The translations under genes were made by a program, and so were the position numbers. Source: a virus. Taken from it: DNA of 64,000 nucleotides. Under the pieces are notes generated by a model. The model worked only from the letters and a program-made list of their open reading frames with translations, did no database searches and was not told the origin of the DNA. This document shows positions 1,772 to 36,030 of the stretch, piece by piece (within the stretch, counting starts at the first letter, position 1; every line of letters starts with the position of its first letter). The stretch covers positions 14,955 through 78,954 of the IMG/VR virus record IMGVR_UViG_3300036900_000025; one strand, given 5' to 3'.

Positions 1772-1802
1772 TTGACGCGGCATAGGGACGTGTGCCTATG
1801 CT
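1772..1802 (+). promoter_or_regulatory. Promoter for a probable leaderless mRNA (TTGACG-19-TATGCT, ATG 7 nt later)
   Basis: -10 TATGCT at 1797-1802, ATG at 1810, no Shine-Dalgarno. Confidence 0.55.
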
Positions 1803-1809
1803 GTGCGCT

Positions 1810-3174
1810 ATGGGCACCGAAGTCTGGTTTCGGAACCCGGACAACTACGTCCGGGAGCTGGTGGAGTGTGCTCAGGGAAACATCTGCTTCGATCGAGGCT
1901 ACCTCATCAAGCGGAACATCGACGTTCAGAAGTGGGCCGCACTGTACTATGGTGCAGGCCTGAGCTACCGGCTCCTGACTGTCGGTTCGCAGGGTACCGC
2001 CGAGTACCGTCCCGGTTCTGACGATCCTGTGGCGGTCTACCCGACGTGGGCTTACGGCGAAGACTGGGCGATGCTGGAGGAGATTGTCTCCGAGCCGCTC
2101 GGTGAGAACAAGGAGGTTTGCTTTGACACCTCGATCCCAAAAGACGAGCGACCTGTATTCGGTCAAGAGCACCGAGTTGTCGTCGTCGAGCCCCCCAACT
2201 CGAGTTCGGGCCCAGGGCGTCAGTTCCTCCGCAATCTCAAGATCCTCCAAGAGGACTACCCGGACTGCATCGTCCATATCCACGGCCTCTACGGATACAG
2301 AGCAGCCTTCGGACTAGGTCTGGGTGCTGCCGACGTGGAGCCTCGTACTGCTGCACAGAAGGGCAAGGTTCACCTTCCCAGCGGTGGCGAGGCGAAGTTC
2401 GAGAAGGTCCAGTCGCACGCTCAGTGGGTCACAGCGATGGGCTTCACTCCTGGGGACTTGGCGGTCCCTCGGAACCGCTGCATCTACAACATCAAGGCAG
2501 CGATCTGGGCTGGAAAGCACTACACAGAGCTGATCAACGTGAAGGTGAGAGGCGGAAACGCTACTCCCGACATCGTTTCGTCCGAGGTTGCTCACCGGCC
2601 TGCCGAAACGGTACACGGCTTTAGCCTGCCGATCATCAAGCCGAAGGAAGGCGACAAGTTCGCCTGCGACACCTGCAGTTTGTCCGGTACTTGCAAGCAC
2701 TACCGAGAAGGGGCGGTGTGTAGCTTGCCCGAGTCTGAGTCCCGAGAACTCGCAACACACTTCCAGACCCGTGACAGCGGCCTCATCATGGAGGGGCTCT
2801 CGGAGATCACGAGAATGCAAGCTCGTCGAACCGAGCGCGCCATTCAGATCGAAGAGATCGACGGCGATGTTGACGACAAGGTCACGAAGATGCTCAGCGT
2901 GCTGTTCGATCAGGGCAGCAAGCTGGCGAAGCTGATCGACCCGAGCCTTCGGGCACCGGGCGTACAGGTGAACGTGGGAGCAGGTGGGCAGGCATCTGTT
3001 CAGATTACACCACAGCAGGCAATCGCGGCGATCTATCGTGAGCTTGAGGCTCGCGGTGTTCCTCGCAACGAGATCACTCCCGACATGGTAAAGCAGCTGC
3101 TTGGGCAGATGACGCCACAGCAGTCTCACCGAACCATTCCGGGAGAGATAGAGCGTGGCGAGCAGACCGCATAG
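1810..3174 (+). CDS. Degenerate TGT/DpdA-like barrel + Cys4 zinc module + helical C-terminus; candidate terminase small subunit
   Basis: ICFDRGY, HIHG, AADVEP..AAQKG and R..YNI echo the FLDSG/HxxG/SxDSS/R..N order of phage TGT-like proteins; CDTC-x5-C-x8-C; lies upstream of TerL. Confidence 0.5.
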   Translation: MGTEVWFRNPDNYVRELVECAQGNICFDRGYLIKRNIDVQKWAALYYGAGLSYRLLTVGSQGTAEYRPGSDDPVAVYPTWAYGEDWAMLEEIVSEPLGENKEVCFDTSIPKDERPVFGQEHRVVVVEPPNSSSGPGRQFLRNLKILQEDYPDCIVHIHGLYGYRAAFGLGLGAADVEPRTAAQKGKVHLPSGGEAKFEKVQSHAQWVTAMGFTPGDLAVPRNRCIYNIKAAIWAGKHYTELINVKVRGGNATPDIVSSEVAHRPAETVHGFSLPIIKPKEGDKFACDTCSLSGTCKHYREGAVCSLPESESRELATHFQTRDSGLIMEGLSEITRMQARRTERAIQIEEIDGDVDDKVTKMLSVLFDQGSKLAKLIDPSLRAPGVQVNVGAGGQASVQITPQQAIAAIYRELEARGVPRNEITPDMVKQLLGQMTPQQSHRTIPGEIERGEQTA

Positions 3175-28791: not shown

Positions 28792-29981
28792 TCCTCGTCA
28801 ATCGCGGACTTCGCCTCGATCGCAACCTTTGGTTCGCCTGTCTTGTAGAAGATCATCGCCTCCACCTGCTTGCGCTGCTCAGGTGTGAGGCGTTGGTCTT
28901 TCTTTAGCTTGTCGAGCTGAGCCATAGTGATCGACACGCCGCCGTACTGCAGGAAGATCTGCGGGCCGACGATGGACTCGATGCGCTCGGGGTCAGCTTG
29001 GCGGCGACGCGAGGACTTGAAGTAGAGCCGATGCGTGTCGGACTCGATCTCGATTAGCTCGCGTTCACGGAGGTCAGTCTCGATCAGCTTGTCCAGCTCT
29101 TCGATCGCAGAGTTGATCGCAGACTGCTGGTAGGTCAGGATTGCGCGTAGGTCGATAGCGTCTTCGGCCTTCTCGATGCCGAAGGTTCCACCTACCGCGA
29201 TGTTCTTTTGCAGCGCTCCGCAGTTGGCTTTGCGGACGCAAAAGCGGCACTCGGCGTTCAGCCGCTCCTCGGATTCGCCCTCTTTCGTAGCCAAGATATC
29301 CTCGGCCTTGCGGAGGATGAAGTTCCAAGTTGCGGTGATCTCTGCACGGGTAAACACGATACCGCTGTCAGTGTGGCGCAGCATGTCGAAGACGACCCAG
29401 ATCGTGTCGTACTCGATGCCCTGCGCCTTGAGCTGGATCGCCGCCGCTAGTGCATAGATTCGCGCCTGTATCTTCTTGGGCAGATCCTGCGGGCGAACGT
29501 CCCAGCGAGACGTCTTGTAGTCAACGACCCGGAACTCCTTCTCGCCGATCTGGTCAAAGCGGTCCCAGATGTAGTTGAGGGGGATCGGACCCGCCGTGGT
29601 CGGGACATCGAAGTGATCCTTGACCTCGCATGAGATCACCTTGATCGGGTAGCCGTATCGCTCCCAGATCGTGCGGTTGTACCAGTTGGTCAGCATCTCG
29701 ATGCCGTCGTGGTAGTCAGGCGTATCGAGATCCGCTGTGCCGAACGTCGTCATGTACGACATGCGGAAGTAGACGAGAAGGTTCTCCAGAGTGTATGGCT
29801 CGGGATTCTCGCTGAGCTTCGTGGCTTTGACGAACAGCTCAAGCGCAGAGTGACACGACGTTCCGAGGCTTGCTGCGGTCCCACCTTCTCCGCGACCTCT
29901 ATTGATCTGTTCTGCTTCGTACCTCGCCATGCACAGTTCTGCAACGTGCAAAGCGGTCGCAGAGAATGACTTAGGAATCAT
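28788..29981 (-). CDS. Cas4/RecB-like PD-(D/E)XK exonuclease
   Basis: FS...C.ARY, GT..H..LE, WDR.D, VVDYKT, Q..IY, CRFC-x5-C. Confidence 0.88.
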   Translation of the reverse strand: MIPKSFSATALHVAELCMARYEAEQINRGRGEGGTAASLGTSCHSALELFVKATKLSENPEPYTLENLLVYFRMSYMTTFGTADLDTPDYHDGIEMLTNWYNRTIWERYGYPIKVISCEVKDHFDVPTTAGPIPLNYIWDRFDQIGEKEFRVVDYKTSRWDVRPQDLPKKIQARIYALAAAIQLKAQGIEYDTIWVVFDMLRHTDSGIVFTRAEITATWNFILRKAEDILATKEGESEERLNAECRFCVRKANCGALQKNIAVGGTFGIEKAEDAIDLRAILTYQQSAINSAIEELDKLIETDLRERELIEIESDTHRLYFKSSRRRQADPERIESIVGPQIFLQYGGVSITMAQLDKLKKDQRLTPEQRKQVEAMIFYKTGEPKVAIEAKSAIDED

Positions 29982-30237
29982 TGTCTATCTCATCCTGTCG
30001 GGTGATGAGTCGGCCAGCCCACACACCGTGAGTGGAGCTGGATCTGTCACGGAACTCGTCACACTGAGCCCGTACGCCACAGCCAAGGCAAACCATCTTG
30101 GCTTCGTTAGCCAGAGACGCCTGGCCACGCGGAGGGAAGAACATCTCGGGGTCTTTGTCTCGACACGCTGCCTGCCCCAACCAGACCTTGTCGTTCGGGT
30201 CGAGCTTAAAGAGGCTAAGCAGCTCCCGAACTACGCT
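29971..30237 (-). CDS. whiB: WhiB-family transcription factor domain (probably expressed as a -1 frameshift fusion)
   Basis: W...AAC...DPEMFFP...AK.VC.GC.V...C...GVWAG; no ATG/GTG/TTG upstream of the conserved Trp. Confidence 0.9.
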   Translation of the reverse strand, partial: SVVRELLSLFKLDPNDKVWLGQAACRDKDPEMFFPPRGQASLANEAKMVCLGCGVRAQCDEFRDRSSSTHGVWAGRLITRQDEIDNDS

Positions 30238-30697: not shown

Positions 30698-31129
30698 GTG
30701 TGGTACCGACACGCGCAGGATAGGAGACAATCGGTGCAGCCAGCCGTACAGGACATCACCGTTCGGCAAGGTGACCGATTCGACCTCTTCGTGCGTCTGC
30801 GCCAGAAGGTCTGGAATCCAGCGCTCAACGGTGGTGCGGGCGACTGGGAACCAGGCCCCTACGTTGACCTCACCGGCAAGACCGTTCGCAGCCAGGTCCG
30901 CAACACTGCCGACGACACGACGGTCCGAGCAACCTTCACTCCGACCATCAGTGATCAGGTCACTCTCAAGGGTGGCTGCCTCCTTACACTCTTTCCGGTG
31001 GACACCAGGGCCCTCATCGTCAACGCAGTCTACGACGTGGAGGTCGAGACGACTGCGACTCCAACCGACACCGAGACGTTCCTCGAGGGGGCGATCACAC
31101 TCAAGAAGGAGATCACCCGCGTACCGTGA
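30698..31129 (+). CDS. Beta-sandwich virion adaptor (BppU-N-like)
   Basis: I...QGD.F...VDLTG.T...QVR...L.L...T......YDVE...T.LEG.I....IT. Confidence 0.65.
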   Translation: MWYRHAQDRRQSVQPAVQDITVRQGDRFDLFVRLRQKVWNPALNGGAGDWEPGPYVDLTGKTVRSQVRNTADDTTVRATFTPTISDQVTLKGGCLLTLFPVDTRALIVNAVYDVEVETTATPTDTETFLEGAITLKKEITRVP

Positions 31130-31371
31130 GTTACTTCGTAGAGGTCACTCTTGACCCGGACGTCTCAGCAACCGAGGTGCCGGACAACTCGGTTGACTAC
31201 TACCTCGAAGTCTCGTACGGGAATCAGACCGAACTTCTCACCGGCATCGAAGATGTGCCCTTCGGGGTCGAAGTCAGCTTGCCAGCCTTGCCGAGAACAG
31301 ACTACGCGATCATCGCGGCAGGAAGTCCGTTACCAACTGACCCGACCATCATGGTCGTGTACGAGTACTGA
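31126..31371 (+). CDS. Small acidic structural-module protein
   Basis: GTGA coupling. Confidence 0.6.
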   Translation: MSYFVEVTLDPDVSATEVPDNSVDYYLEVSYGNQTELLTGIEDVPFGVEVSLPALPRTDYAIIAAGSPLPTDPTIMVVYEY

Positions 31372-31379
31372 GGAGAGAC

Positions 31380-31730
31380 ATGGCTGACGAAGCCACCACT
31401 CCGGCCCTGAAGAGGGGCTGTGAGCTGTGCGGAGGGGTCGATGACCACCCTCGTACACTGCACTACCTCGCACCAGGCGATGACCGCGGAGTCATGCCCG
31501 ACGATGTCCTGAACAAGCTCATCGAGAACGGCATCTCTGGCGAGATGCTCAAGGAGCTGCAGGACCCGGCGACGTTCTTTGTCCACATCGACTGCTGCGC
31601 GCAGTCGGGTCGCTGCCCGATCCCCGACGGCCCCTTCAGTCGGTCCTGCAACACGGAGTTGAGTCGCGCCAAGGTGAACGGCGAGACGGGCGACGCGATG
31701 CGCAAGAAGCTGCAGGCGGTGAGCAACTGA
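31380..31730 (+). CDS. Cys/His-rich zinc-binding protein
   Basis: CELC..VDDHPR...HIDCC...C...C; GAGGAG RBS. Confidence 0.7.
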   Translation: MADEATTPALKRGCELCGGVDDHPRTLHYLAPGDDRGVMPDDVLNKLIENGISGEMLKELQDPATFFVHIDCCAQSGRCPIPDGPFSRSCNTELSRAKVNGETGDAMRKKLQAVSN

Positions 31731-32146
31731 TGGGCGCACTCGTCGCAGTACACGGCCAGGGCCTCCTCGACGCCAGCACTGACCAGTCCGGAGCTGCCGT
31801 CCGTGTGACCACCGGCCCGCTCAAGCTTCGCCAGATGACGGCCAACGGGTCCAACACCGCTGCAGGTACCGAGGTCGCCACGGGTGGCGGCTACACCTCG
31901 GGCGTCGGTGCTCCCACCGTCACCTTCGCCGCTGCGTCGGGTACCGCACCCGTCCAGACGACGAACTCCGGTGCTGTCACGATCTCCAACTATCCACGCG
32001 CAGAGACTGTTGTGGGCATCGAGGTCTGGGACAGCGCCGGTACCCCTCTCCGCAAGTGGTGGGGTGCGCTGACTGCCTCCAAGACGATGGCAGCTGGCGA
32101 CACGCTCTCCTACGCGATCGGTGCGATTGCTCTCCAGCTTCCCTGA
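31730..32146 (+). CDS. Small beta-rich virion fibre subunit-like protein
   Basis: L.L...TA.G....GTEV..GGY...VTF.AAS...N...V....VWD.......G.L..SKT..AGDTL; strong codon bias. Confidence 0.7.
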   Translation: MGALVAVHGQGLLDASTDQSGAAVRVTTGPLKLRQMTANGSNTAAGTEVATGGGYTSGVGAPTVTFAAASGTAPVQTTNSGAVTISNYPRAETVVGIEVWDSAGTPLRKWWGALTASKTMAAGDTLSYAIGAIALQLP

Positions 32147-32159
32147 GAGCACTCAAGAC

Positions 32160-32197
32160 CAGCCGGGGTCCTCGTGGGCATCGCAGGACCCCGGCTG
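32160..32197 (+). terminator. 13-bp hairpin between the small subunit gene and the large repeat gene
   Basis: cagccggggtcct / aggaccccggctg. Confidence 0.7.
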
Positions 32198-32220
32198 ACC
32201 GACGTTTAGGGAGGTGAGTA

Positions 32221-35200
32221 GTGGCAGCGTCGTTCGTCAGGGATCATGGTGCAGCGAGCATCAAGACTGCTGGCGCAGCGAATATCAACGTTGTCACTGG
32301 CGCAACAGCTCCCGATGTTGGGAACGTTCTCGTAGCCCGCATCCTCTTCGACAACTTCTCAACTGCCAGTCAGCCTGTCGTTTCTTCGATTGCCAAGCCA
32401 GCCGGAGAGATGAACAACTGGGTCTTTCTTGGCGCCGCCCGTTCTACTTCAACTTCAGCCGGATCGTTCGCATCAGGTGAGTTGTGGGCGATCCAGACGA
32501 GTGTTGCTTGGCCTGCTAGCACTTCGTACCTCGTAACTCTGAACAACTCAGTCACGATGAAGGCCACAAGCCTCCGTGAGTTCACAAACGTTCTTCCGGT
32601 ACTTCGCAACACAGTCGGTACGGCGTACAGCACGACCACCACCGCTGCCTCCGCAACGACCACCGGCACGACGCCAGTAGTTGGTGACTTGGCGCTGGGA
32701 TTCCTATTCGGATCGAACGTTGCTTCGGCACAAGCCGGTGATACTGACACCACAGGTGGCTCTTGGAGCGCAGCTGACGGTGTTGGTTCGACTGGTGGTA
32801 ATGCCGCCACAAACAACTTCGGCATCGGTCAGTACAAGGTCTTGACAGCTGCTTCTCAGCAGACGTATAACTCGTCTGCCGCAGGGTCGGCAGGTAACGG
32901 CGCTATCGTTGCAATCTTGCAAGGTGTTGCGCCGCCAACTGCCCCCGTCACTGCTCCAACCGTTGTACTGCCGACAGCTGGTAGTCAAGAGCGCATTCTC
33001 ATCACGACACCGCCGACTCTGGAAGGTGGTGCAGCTTCATACAGCGTCTATCGCAACGGCACGCTTGTTCAGAGTTCGGTTGCGAACGCAACGCAGATCA
33101 ATGACTTCAACGCATCTGAGACATCCTCCCAGACGTACACAGTTCGTGGAGTCAACACTGCTGGTACGAGCACTGACAGTCCGGCATCCTCCAGTATCGT
33201 TGCTAACCCGGACCCACCATCAGTTACACTGACGCCGGGTGACACTACGGTTGACATCTCGGTCTTCCAGCGAACGTATAACGCGCAGTACAAGATTTAC
33301 CGGCGCAAGACACCTGTTGCTCCGTGGGTCGGTACCATCGTGCTAGGCAACGTTGCAGGTGCTACTGCTCTATCCGCAGCGGTTGACATCTCCGGTGCAA
33401 CGACAGGTGAGGTTGTATTCGTCGGAGGTCTGCTCGAAGATACGTTGACTGCGCCAGTCACGTTGCCTAGCGGATGGACACTTGCGTCCGAAGGCTCGGA
33501 AGGTGTCACTGCTGGTGCAGGTTCACACTCGTTCCTAGCTTGGCGCGTCAAGCAGGCCGGTGATACAACCTTCACGTTCTCGTGGGGTGTTGCGGGCAAG
33601 TATCAACTGATTCCGTTCTCGTACCCCGGCGTTGACACAACGACGCCTGTAGACGTTGCCGCCTACAACGCCTCTACCACTGCGGCTTCGGCTGACTCGG
33701 CATCCATCACGCCTTCTACTCCGAACAGTTGGATTATCGGTCTGTTCGGCAAGCGCGGTACGACAGCCGCTATGGCGATCACCCCTGCGACCGGGATGAC
33801 CGAGAGGGGGGAAGCAGATACTAGTGCGTCTCGCTTCCTCTCGCTGGAGTTGGCTGACACCAACGGACAGGTAACCCAGGCAGCACACTCATACAGCGCG
33901 ACCGTTACTGGCTCCACTGCCTCACACGGTGGAACGATCGTCGCCGCGTTGAACTTTGCCTGGACACTCATCAACACCTCTTCGACACTTACTGCCGGGA
34001 CGGGCAACTACGTCTACACCGACACGGCCCTCACCAACAGTACCAGTTACGACTACTCCGTAACGACGAACCCGCAGACCCCGACGGTACGAGAGTCTGT
34101 CAAGGCCATAGCCCAGCCGGCCGTTCCGGTCAGCCCGCCAGTCACCCTCGTTCCGACTGCTGATATCTCGCACTCAACGAACGCGGCTCCTGCTAGTGGT
34201 ACTGCTTTCTGGAGTCTGCTCGACGACGATCCGGCCTCTTCCACGAATGATGCAGGAACCGACTACGTCTCGATGGTCGGGTTCAGTGCAGAGAATTTCG
34301 TCGTCCAGATTGGCGACGGTGGTTCTGGCGCACCACTTGCTGTTACCATCAACCTCAGGACGAAGGGAACTGTAACTCCAGCTATCACTGTTGCGATCCT
34401 GAACTCCAGTGGTACAACACTTACGTCGAAACTGCTTACACCAGGAACCATCTCTCCAACTCTGAACTCTTGGACACTGAACTCAACAGAGTTGGCGACG
34501 ATCCCCACCCTTAACGGCTTGCGCCTGAAGATGTCGGGAAACCCTGGTGGCGAGGAATACGATGTTCTCGCTGTCAACATGGTGGCTTCTCCGGGGGCCA
34601 GTGGGCCTGCAACCCTCTCCGGTGCCGCGACACTGACCAACAGCTCGACCATCAGCGCTGGTGGTACGTTCCAGCAAGAAGCTGGTACTGCACTTAGTCA
34701 GACAAGTACGCTGTCGGCCGGTGGTGTACGTCAGCAGCCAGCCGCCATTACGCTGACTCAGGCCAGCACGGTCAACGCTACCGGGTTGCCGCTCAAGCCC
34801 GGTGCCGCTACACTCACGCAGACCAGCACGCTGGCTGGGGTCGGGGATCGCACCGCCGCGCCCTCTGTAACGCTCACGCAGACCTCCACCATCGCCGGTG
34901 CAGCTGTACCGATCAGGTTGGGCGCAGCGACGCTGACTAACAGCAGTACTGTCAACGCTGCAGCATTCGAGACGAACCTTGTCTCGGTAACGCTGACGCA
35001 GACCAGCACAATGTCTGCAGTTGGTGGCACGATTCAGACTGCCGCTGTCACACTCAGTCAGACCAGTACAATGTCTGCATTCGGTGGCGGGTTGACTGTC
35101 GGCGCGGCTACCCTGACGAACAGTTCGATCCTGGCTGGAGCTGGTGACCGTACCGCAGCACCGACTACCGCCCTCACTCAGACTAGCGTTCTCTCGAGTG

Positions 35201-36030
35201 TTGCACTTAGTACAGGGCTCGGGGCAGCTGTACTGACGCAGACAAGTACTCTCTCGAGCCAGCTCGTGCGAATCGCTATCGGCGCTATCACGCTGACTCA
35301 GACTAGCACAGTCAACTCGGCTGGCATCGAGATCAACCTCGCAGCGATCACGCTGACGAACAACTCGACTATCAATGCGCTGGCTTCTGGCTTCGGTACA
35401 CAGTCGGGCGCAGCGATGCTGACGAACAGTAGCACAATCAGTTCGGCACCAGTGATGACCGCCATTACGAGCGTCACACTGACAAACAGTAGCACAGTCA
35501 CAGTTGGAGCTGCTCGTACAGTACTGCCTGCCATCGTACTGACTAACGACAGCGTTGCGGTCATCGGCGGATTGCGGACGGTACCAGCAACAGGCACTCT
35601 CGTCCAGACGAACACGCTCGTCGTGGGCGGGATCAGGATTGCCACTGTCGCGGCCACGTTGACGAACAGCAGTATGGTCGTTGTAGGAGCCAGTAGGACG
35701 GTTCTTCCGACAGCGACGCTGACGCAGACATCTGTGCTGACTGGTGTGCCCGTGGTGACCCGTCTAGGCGGGATCACGCTCGTGCAGCCGTCCGTGGCAT
35801 CCCTCGGAGCGTTGGCGCAGCGGGTCGCCGCCGCAGTCTTGATCCAATCTAGTACGATGTCCGCCGAAGGACTAAAGATTGGGTCGTGGCCCATATCTGT
35901 ACGCGGTTCCGACGGCGACTTGCACCTAATCCAGGACGTGCATGTACGCCGACCGGATGGTGCGCTGGTGGTACCAGTACGGATTTGGGTACGTCAGCGG
36001 CCTAGCTGGGATTGGGTCAGCCTGGGATAG
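32221..36030 (+). CDS. Large Thr/Ser/Ala-rich fibre protein: beta-sandwich and FN3 domains followed by 21 repeats of 20 aa
   Basis: GGAGGT RBS; FN3 motifs YSVYRNG and Y.YTD..L.N.TSY.YSV; C-terminal repeats. Confidence 0.8.
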   Translation: MAASFVRDHGAASIKTAGAANINVVTGATAPDVGNVLVARILFDNFSTASQPVVSSIAKPAGEMNNWVFLGAARSTSTSAGSFASGELWAIQTSVAWPASTSYLVTLNNSVTMKATSLREFTNVLPVLRNTVGTAYSTTTTAASATTTGTTPVVGDLALGFLFGSNVASAQAGDTDTTGGSWSAADGVGSTGGNAATNNFGIGQYKVLTAASQQTYNSSAAGSAGNGAIVAILQGVAPPTAPVTAPTVVLPTAGSQERILITTPPTLEGGAASYSVYRNGTLVQSSVANATQINDFNASETSSQTYTVRGVNTAGTSTDSPASSSIVANPDPPSVTLTPGDTTVDISVFQRTYNAQYKIYRRKTPVAPWVGTIVLGNVAGATALSAAVDISGATTGEVVFVGGLLEDTLTAPVTLPSGWTLASEGSEGVTAGAGSHSFLAWRVKQAGDTTFTFSWGVAGKYQLIPFSYPGVDTTTPVDVAAYNASTTAASADSASITPSTPNSWIIGLFGKRGTTAAMAITPATGMTERGEADTSASRFLSLELADTNGQVTQAAHSYSATVTGSTASHGGTIVAALNFAWTLINTSSTLTAGTGNYVYTDTALTNSTSYDYSVTTNPQTPTVRESVKAIAQPAVPVSPPVTLVPTADISHSTNAAPASGTAFWSLLDDDPASSTNDAGTDYVSMVGFSAENFVVQIGDGGSGAPLAVTINLRTKGTVTPAITVAILNSSGTTLTSKLLTPGTISPTLNSWTLNSTELATIPTLNGLRLKMSGNPGGEEYDVLAVNMVASPGASGPATLSGAATLTNSSTISAGGTFQQEAGTALSQTSTLSAGGVRQQPAAITLTQASTVNATGLPLKPGAATLTQTSTLAGVGDRTAAPSVTLTQTSTIAGAAVPIRLGAATLTNSSTVNAAAFETNLVSVTLTQTSTMSAVGGTIQTAAVTLSQTSTMSAFGGGLTVGAATLTNSSILAGAGDRTAAPTTALTQTSVLSSVALSTGLGAAVLTQTSTLSSQLVRIAIGAITLTQTSTVNSAGIEINLAAITLTNNSTINALASGFGTQSGAAMLTNSSTISSAPVMTAITSVTLTNSSTVTVGAARTVLPAIVLTNDSVAVIGGLRTVPATGTLVQTNTLVVGGIRIATVAATLTNSSMVVVGASRTVLPTATLTQTSVLTGVPVVTRLGGITLVQPSVASLGALAQRVAAAVLIQSSTMSAEGLKIGSWPISVRGSDGDLHLIQDVHVRRPDGALVVPVRIWVRQRPSWDWVSLG
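34621..35886 (+). repeat. Coding tandem repeat: 21 degenerate units of 60 nt/20 aa (xAxTLT[QN][TS]STh...)
   Basis: 60-nt periodicity visible from 34621; one unit is 22 aa. Confidence 0.9.

Follow-up and report, generated by a model that had tools for sequence, protein, structure and literature searches.

A candidate rope-and-bead fibre cassette in an uncultured phage: a Gp80-family protein encoded beside a protein with 20-residue repeats

Introduction

Chain-like phage fibres of the 'beads on a string' kind were first seen by cryo-electron microscopy (cryo-EM) in 2023, and phages GP4, Bas63/Sf14, A1002 and VP1 are named as carrying them. To our knowledge, only four or five cryo-EM structures of rope-and-bead fibres exist, all of phages that infect Gram-negative hosts, and their rope is not recognisable by sequence. 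The GP4 Fiber I study (J Mol Biol 2023, 435:168258) reportedly also described an Ig-like fibre-tail adaptor, gp77. Here, we analyse a candidate fibre system of this kind, encoded by a cassette at positions 30698-36030 of a 64,000 nt stretch of viral DNA (the window), which corresponds to bases 14955-78954 of the 78,954-bp IMG/VR virus record IMGVR_UViG_3300036900_000025.

In the fibres of GP4, Bas63/Sf14 and A1002, dimers of a Gp80-type protein sit on an extended rope, a strand of which completes an incomplete β-sandwich (PMC12609058, PMC13730344). GP4, a Ralstonia podophage (PDB 8JOU), has five gp80 dimers on a separately encoded rope (PMC12609058, PMC13730344). The A1002 rope belongs to gp39, a nozzle-rope protein, and bears fibre dimers of gp40 and gp41; its fibre-dock residues 243-468, 226 amino acids (aa) in all, carry 11 dimers, or 20.5 aa per dimer (PMC13730344). 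The principle is, therefore, a known one (GP4 2023; Sf14 and Bas63 2025; A1002 2026).

A preliminary description of the window, made from the sequence alone, had proposed that each repeat of a large protein donates a β-strand to a copy of a small β subunit, so that the repeat number sets the length of the fibre. The five-gene rightward cassette on which this proposal was built was recovered in full. The cassette probably specifies a fibre of the chain-like type known from GP4 Fiber I, the Bas63 whiskers and A1002, in which a 138-aa protein would be the bead and the repeats of a 1269-aa protein the rope. The features of the cassette are as follows.

30698-31129 (+): collar/adaptor-like Ig β-sandwich protein (T5 p132/LtfC-like; phrog_1084), 143 aa
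31126-31371 (+): 81-aa open reading frame (ORF), its start overlapping the end of the previous gene
31380-31730 (+): 116-aa Cys/His (probable Zn) protein, its end overlapping the start of the bead gene
31730-32146 (+): bead subunit, 138 aa, Gp80/Fiber-I/whisker family
32160-32197 (+): 13-bp G+C-rich hairpin, followed by GGAGG and a GTG start at 32221
32221-36030 (+): gene for the 1269-aa fibre protein
32221-32940 (+): conserved N-terminal domain of the fibre protein, aa 1-240
32941-34623 (+): variable middle of the fibre protein, aa 241-801, with FN3-like and other β domains
34624-35895 (+): candidate rope, aa 802-1225, 21 units of 20 aa
35896-36030 (+): C-terminal tail, the 44 aa after the repeats, and the stop codon

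Results and Discussion

The 138-aa protein belongs to the Gp80 bead family

The 138-aa protein matched the Pfam family PF23140 ('Podophage GP4 fiber I protein gp80') with 30.8 bits and an E-value of 4e-7, above the Pfam cut-off of 27, and also matched phrog_240. A six-frame search of the whole record with PF23140 returned the same gene, at 30 bits, as the sole copy. Database searches yielded 452 homologues, and nearly all of the 120 that were listed carry PF23140. The AlphaFold2 (AF2) model, made with an alignment of 72 homologues, had a predicted local distance difference test score (pLDDT) of 93.4, and consists of an N-terminal helix (residues 6-16) and seven strands that form a β-sandwich. 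When this model was compared with the PDB using Foldseek, matches at probability 1.0 were obtained to 8jou_a (GP4 Fiber I, TM 0.62), 9c39_K (Sf14 neck) and chains K, L, I and M of 9mt4 (Bas63 whiskers), and no credible match was found beyond these GP4, Sf14 and Bas63 beads. By both family and fold, the 138-aa protein is a member of the GP4/Bas63/Sf14 bead family.

The strand-donation mechanism put forward in the preliminary description thus already exists in nature, and the bead belongs to it. Donation of strands to the small subunit, with repeat number setting length, is supported by homology to solved chain-like fibres rather than by direct demonstration, and the donor-strand principle is not new, being already found in the fibres of GP4, Bas63/Sf14 and A1002. 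No longer forms of the bead fused to a rope were found, which is weak evidence.

The same description had drawn a parallel with pili. In a pilus-like homopolymer the beads would be joined head to tail, each exchanging donor strands with the next, and there would be no rope. The sequence search with phmmer did give a weak match of the bead to the type-1 fimbrial protein A (6erj, E 0.04-0.05), but this match lacks significance and shows compositional bias, the confident structural matches are confined to phage beads with no pilin among them, and Pfam and PHROG searches revealed no usher or chaperone gene in the cassette. Furthermore, the beads of the solved relatives are dimers on a rope. A rope-free homopolymer is very improbable on this evidence. 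We rejected the pilus-type reading on the FimA match (E 0.04) and the missing pilin fold, and conclude that the cassette is unrelated to chaperone-usher pili.

Bead genes are linked to proteins with a 20-aa period

The candidate rope gene starts 74 nt after the bead gene, and this pairing recurs widely. A period-20 ORF starting no more than 2.5 kb downstream of the Gp80-like gene was present at 39 of 69 viral loci, compared with 28 of 809 control ORFs, where the 69 loci were the contigs with enough downstream DNA and the controls were the other ORFs of the same loci; several of the 28 control positives were shadow frames or upstream ropes. An independent set of loci from bacterial genomes, all Actinomycetota, gave a period-20 ORF after the Gp80-like gene in 26 of 40 cases; hosts of prophage relatives include, for example, Streptomyces resistomycificus DSM 40133, S. 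rimosus NRRL WC-3904 and Terrabacter terrigena. The reverse search, which started from the N-terminal domain of the large protein, led to an upstream Gp80-family gene in all 10 complete loci (directly upstream in every one except L093), and the Gp80-family genes scored above the Pfam cut-off in each of the six loci that were scanned. Bead genes and repeat genes are, thus, linked, and the 20-aa period is common to the partners.

The number of units varied from about 6 to 73 among the relatives, the first loci having about 6-30. The highest count was seen in a 2309-aa relative on a viral contig (L103:10001-16930), whose periodic region (aa 777-2241) holds ~73 units and which has a Pfam Gp80 gene directly upstream. 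Co-occurrence of the two families and variation in repeat number across phages, two checks that the preliminary description had recommended, both count in favour of the rope-and-bead reading. In a Mycobacterium metagenome-assembled genome, a 1055-aa ORF made up almost entirely of 20-aa units (about 49) lies ~2.4 kb downstream of a Gp80-like gene (L113:8791-11958).

The recurrence of the pairing bears on the possibility that the two proteins are separate in function, the 138-aa protein decorating the head or neck, the 1269-aa protein being an independent tail fibre or adhesin, and their adjacency reflecting a shared late operon. The PHROG label of phrog_240 is 'head protein', and GP4 Fiber I docks onto the capsid, both of which would suit a head decoration. 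However, the same label is borne by FelixO1 ORF55 (L091:5210-5542), which corresponds to the Bas63/Sf14 whisker, and the label is on this account misleading. The pairing with period-20 proteins also recurs in unrelated contexts, in both search directions and with strong enrichment. We regard separate functions as improbable.

The repeat region as a candidate rope

The repeat region (aa 802-1225) contains 20 units of exactly 20 aa and one unit of 22 aa, with the motif A-x-T-L-T-[Q/N]-x-S-T-h. Identity at lag 20 was 0.33 in the repeats, compared with about 0.10 in the N-terminal 820 aa. The count of 21 units given in the preliminary description was confirmed, but 'near-exact' was an overstatement, as conservation is good only in the first half of each unit and Tandem Repeats Finder detected no tandem array in the DNA. 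The repeat region had no match among PDB sequences, a hidden Markov model of the 21 units detected no further rope, and related-locus searches with the repeat alignment or the repeat region as query returned nothing. The unit motif differs among phages while the 20-aa period is kept. In many of the Gp80-linked loci the units share the consensus A-x-A-x-L-x-A-x-S-x-L-x-A-x-G, in which a glycine comes after an amphipathic strand.

A rope-bearing protein, a candidate one in the case of the window, is encoded beside the bead gene in the window, KPP25/A1002 and FelixO1/Bas63; in GP4, the rope candidate gp79 adjoins the bead gene. The closest likeness in spacing is to A1002, with 20.5 aa per dimer compared with the 20-aa unit of the window. 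Phage KPP25 encodes ORF007 and ORF006, of the sizes of A1002 gp41 and gp40, directly upstream of ORF005, of the size of gp39. The window resembles this arrangement in having its bead gene directly upstream of the candidate rope gene, and in having a terminal globular domain that caps the rope. A1002/KPP25 differ in that the rope lies within a podophage nozzle protein and there are two bead paralogues; PF23140 matched nothing in the KPP25 record at E-values up to 10. Within KPP25 ORF005 (L086:7852-9714), which has no sequence periodicity overall, a faint [LIVMW]P motif occurs at 250, 269, 288, 307, 330, 351 and 370, with best coherence at 20-20.5 aa, a periodicity that 3-4% of shuffles reached for a motif chosen after looking.

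GP4 shares with the window the bead family (PF23140/phrog_240), its Fiber I being the best structural match of the window bead, and the encoding of bead, rope and Ig-like adaptor as separate genes. It differs in being a podophage of a Gram-negative host with five dimers, and in having an adaptor of the Gp77 family (PF23148). Moreover, the candidate rope of the window makes up the last third, at the C-terminus, of a multidomain protein of 1269 aa and has 21 sharply periodic units. The virion protein gp79 of GP4, encoded directly after gp80 (L083:8548-9525), has its best self-identity at lags of 20, 10 and 40. It contains Gly-rich 10/20-aa units over ~230 aa and is a natural candidate for the GP4 rope.

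The likeness to Bas63/Sf14 (PDB 9MT4, 9C39; PMC12609058) lies in the whisker fold, which the bead model matched at Foldseek probability 1.0. In Bas63/FelixO1 an Ig-like collar protein, encoded beside the whisker gene, extends into the rope; in FelixO1, whisker ORF55 is adjoined by ORF54, a collar protein that is almost the same as 9mt4_G, the collar of Bas63. These phages differ from the window in being myophages with two dimers per collar, and in having a rope of at most ~50 aa, without a sequence repeat, that holds the two dimers.

Weighing the rope against a β-helix

Several observations speak against the rope-and-bead reading. Under the strict detector, ~40% of loci had no strong period-20 partner. 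No overt repeat is seen in the sequence of the A1002/KPP25 rope. For GP4 gp79, which is absent from the PDB sequences, identity with the rope of that phage could not be confirmed, and its ~11 units disagree with the five dimers observed. A Gp77-type adaptor (PF23148) was not found in the whole 78,954-bp record at E-values up to 1, under a search in which GP4 gp77, as positive control, scored 85.9 bits. Finally, while the period of 20 aa is close to the 20.5 aa per dimer of A1002, AF2 folded aa 790-1269 alone into a right-handed β-helix, with a mean pLDDT of 74.6 (~90 in the mid-region) and a predicted TM score (pTM) of 0.70. VIA-align superposed this model on known β-helices at Z 20-24, including Vag8 (24.1), TibA (23.1) and MpAFP (20.4), as well as the Ag43 passenger and EtpA.

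This model raises the possibility that the repeats self-fold as a right-handed β-helix of ~10 nm, with one coil per unit, and serve as the rigid C-terminal shaft or adhesin of an ordinary fibre, in which case the Gp80-like dimers would bind the helix surface, another extended segment or another protein. β-helical adhesins and antifreeze proteins (the Ag43, TibA and Vag8 passengers; MpAFP) have repeats of ~19-20 aa. The unit pattern would also suit three short strands with arcs, given L at positions 4 and 10, Q/N at 6 and G at ~14, with hydrophobic residues that alternate along the latter half of many units. However, the likeness is one of a moderate-confidence, repeat-biased model and has no sequence-family support: the window repeats matched none of these families, and the adhesins have no counterpart of the Gp80-like neighbour, nor has the window, with its phage context, a secretion apparatus.

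The β-helix prediction is real counter-evidence, and the preliminary description had itself named folding of the repeats alone as a solenoid as an outcome that would refute it. This outcome occurred in part, as a prediction from an alignment that can bias AF2 towards a solenoid. We do not consider the prediction decisive. The alignment comprised 27 repeat regions from related loci with their repeats in phase, and when such repeats have become homogenised inside a protein, lag-20 couplings arise whatever the structure. The strand pattern shifts along the model, where DSSP assigned one long strand per unit, changing to three short strands per unit. A Foldseek search with the model was unmatched, and the first units are poor in core-type hydrophobics. 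A β-helix also leaves unexplained the Gp80-family gene upstream in every complete locus found via the N-terminal domain, and the agreement of the period with the A1002 rope length per dimer, and it leaves no encoded rope for a bead family that needs one, no other rope candidate being present. Taken together, these points lead us to consider the β-helix unlikely, although a more serious contender than the other alternatives, and to favour an extended rope.

Probable attachment and orientation of the fibre

The preliminary description had called the first gene of the cassette adaptor-like, and the family profile bore this out. The 143-aa protein matched phrog_1084 (E 2.6e-13) and had 234 homologues, which were mostly free-standing, were 115-135 aa in length and began at residue 14 of the query; for this last reason, translation probably begins at the GTG near 30734, which would give a protein of ~131 aa. 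The profile matched p132, an L-shaped tail fibre protein of T5 (7qg9_R, E 1.5e-3; 8hqz_Q, E 8e-4), and its best solved match was PDB 26dk_M, a 197-aa 'Structural protein' chain (E 2.9e-7). Seven of the 61 family members matched Pfam LtfC, a Pfam scan of the window protein itself gave no match, and look-ups in protein atlases returned viral clusters without names in addition to the LtfC lead. A related-locus search with the 143-aa protein as query returned nothing. The protein resembles, and is homologous to, the T5 p132 collar, an LtfC-like β-sandwich (PF23926) that acts as a fibre adaptor in the siphophage T5, where it anchors the L-shaped tail fibres. T5 differs in that its match to the window family is weak and its fibres are trimers of pb1, not bead chains.

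The collar-like protein can be connected to the rope through Streptomyces-type relatives, in which a rope protein of ~370 aa is encoded directly after the bead gene and has ~7 units followed by a C-terminal phrog_1084 domain (E 1e-13 to 1e-15). This 'rope then Ig-type domain' fusion provides a Rosetta-stone link between the collar-like protein of the window and the rope. The Streptomyces-type relatives share the layout of the Bas63 collar, in which repeats precede an Ig-type collar domain, whereas the window, with a rope gene and a separate Ig adaptor gene, has the layout of GP4; its collar-type protein is nearer to T5 p132 than to the Bas63 collar. Because the collar domain sits C-terminal to the repeats in the fused relatives, the C-terminal end of the rope is probably proximal to the virion, with the N-terminal 800 aa distal.

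The distal position agrees with the make-up of the N-terminal part, which the preliminary description had assigned to the tip. Residues 1-240 were 43-71% identical to most of 24 database homologues, the other domains of which differ, and had no match in a Pfam scan. The sole Pfam match within aa 241-801 was a weak one to the RGI_lyase β-sheet (aa 271-317, E 0.005). Homologues carry GH16, LamG (PF13385), DUF4082 or other modules at this position, and the middle region of the 1269-aa protein is shared only by P0122 and L005/L058. Variable domains that follow a conserved 240-aa domain are as expected of a receptor-binding end, and the variable middle is a probable distal or receptor-binding part. 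At the opposite end, the 44-aa tail had low AF2 confidence and no homologue in the related loci. As a collar-type domain follows the repeats in relatives, this tail is possibly a docking piece for the collar protein.

Hairpin and expression of the two genes

The 74-nt gap between the bead and rope genes does contain the 13-bp hairpin that the preliminary description had reported. The G+C-rich stem pairs 32160-32172 with 32185-32197, and the gap has a folding energy of -39.5 kcal/mol (z = -4.3). The hairpin was not called by a terminator scan because no U-tract follows it. It had been proposed to set stoichiometry, but the structure is not conserved: no comparable hairpin was found in seven relatives with gaps of 32-70 nt, and the gap in most relatives is only 5-50 nt. 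At best, therefore, the hairpin is a local device that lies outside the logic of the system.

With the capsid and major tail genes as reference, the bead gene had a codon adaptation index of 0.64, the large gene one of 0.40 and the capsid gene one of 0.83. The bead gene is, thus, codon-biased as described, but to a moderate and not a high degree. In this phage only, the strong hairpin and the weaker codon usage would hold expression of the rope gene far below that of the bead gene.

The Cys/His protein and the 81-aa ORF

Among the upstream neighbours of the bead gene, the 116-aa Cys/His protein (a probable Zn protein) is conserved best. Residues C14, C17, H69, C72, C73, C79 and C90 are invariant across 11 homologues, and at 39 loci a homologue was found directly upstream of the Gp80-like gene, the median start being at -312 nt. 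Its inclusion in the cassette is upheld by this linkage. Pfam and PHROG searches placed it in no known family, and that it helps to assemble the bead or the fibre is a guess.

The 81-aa ORF has a G+C content at third codon positions of 0.72, consistent with a coding frame. It matched nothing in Pfam or PHROG, and no homologue was found beside the Gp80-like genes of 80 related viral loci. The ORF contains three strand-like h-E-V-[ST]-h motifs, ~21-22 aa apart, and could be a short rope-like piece or a small β protein.

A proposed fibre and its implications

The family and fold of the bead, the linkage of bead and repeat genes, the 20-aa period and the homology to a collar protein are established here. 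From these parts we infer how a rope-and-bead fibre would be built: how the rope is threaded, in what stoichiometry and with which polarity, and where the Zn protein and the hairpin might act. The bead would dimerise, putatively through its N-terminal helix, and the β-sandwich of each bead would be incomplete. The rope would run through the grooves of successive dimers and complete each sandwich by β-strand augmentation. One 20-aa unit would hold one dimer, because the A1002 rope uses ~20.5 aa for each, so that 21 units would carry ~21 dimers, or ~42 beads; at one monomer per unit there would be 21 beads. The preliminary description had expected one subunit per repeat (~21:1), and the A1002 register points instead to a probable ratio of ~42:1. 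The number of units would determine how long the fibre is, and its length may be estimated at ~57 nm from the A1002 pitch (~300 Å for 11 dimers) or at ~140 nm were the 424-aa chain fully extended. The 143-aa Ig protein would tie the C-terminal end of the rope to the virion as a collar or adaptor, and the N-terminal 800 aa would form the distal tip, consisting of the conserved 240-aa domain and then variable FN3/lectin-like modules. The conserved Cys/His protein would act with the bead, perhaps in assembly.

A broader proposal follows the same lines, and we judge the case for and against it to be evenly balanced. In a large lineage of phages and prophages of actinobacteria, the rope would have become a strict 20-aa code, in which each unit docks one Gp80-type dimer and the number of units (about 6-73; 21 here) sets the length of a fibre, possibly >100 nm, that is mounted on a siphophage collar of the T5-p132 type and assembled with a dedicated Zn protein. 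Such fibres would exceed all known bead chains in length, and would be the first not to come from podophages or myophages of Gram-negative hosts. We found no treatment of actinophages or of sequence repeats in the literature on phage rope proteins that was searched.

If the proposal is correct, the host group and phage type would be new to these fibres, as would a rope that ends a large multidomain protein, a rope that is sharply periodic and countable, the largest unit numbers so far, and the T5-p132-type collar and conserved Zn protein as partners. The architecture would occur widely among phages and prophages of actinobacteria, for instance in those of Streptomyces, Mycobacterium, Nonomuraea, Parafrankia and Terrabacter. 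Ropes would be recognisable, and the number of beads countable, from sequence alone, and fibre length would evolve through gain and loss of units. Many genes annotated as 'hypothetical', 'head protein' or 'minor tail protein' would be open to re-annotation. The fibre would also represent a simple, tunable system with which to probe how a polymer of defined length is templated by strand complementation.

Genome context

The window encodes a terminase, portal, protease, major capsid protein and tail proteins, together with an 1826-aa ORF of tape-measure size, which is why we classify the source as a siphophage. The terminase-like protein is ~30% identical to its counterparts in Gordonia, Rhodococcus and Tsukamurella phages, and the source is an uncultured actinobacterial siphophage. 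When 50,697 phage records were searched by megablast and tblastn, neither the cassette nor the large protein nor the bead found a match. The cassette consists of five rightward ORFs with leftward early genes on both sides, far from the main structural operon.

The preliminary description had likened the bead gene, hairpin and large gene to a major tail gene, hairpin and tape measure. We rejected the tail-tube/tape-measure analogy as a resemblance of layout only, since tail genes and a tape measure of 1826 aa are already encoded upstream by the phage itself.

Two further genes of the window deserve mention. Just upstream of the cassette, on the opposite strand, is a WhiB-like Cys-rich ORF (29971-30180, -). 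A 460-aa protein encoded at 1792-3174 matched the PHROGs family annotated as 'terminase small subunit' (phrog_6902, E 3e-64), for which it is unusually long, and the match to the large terminase subunit lay in the gene that follows.

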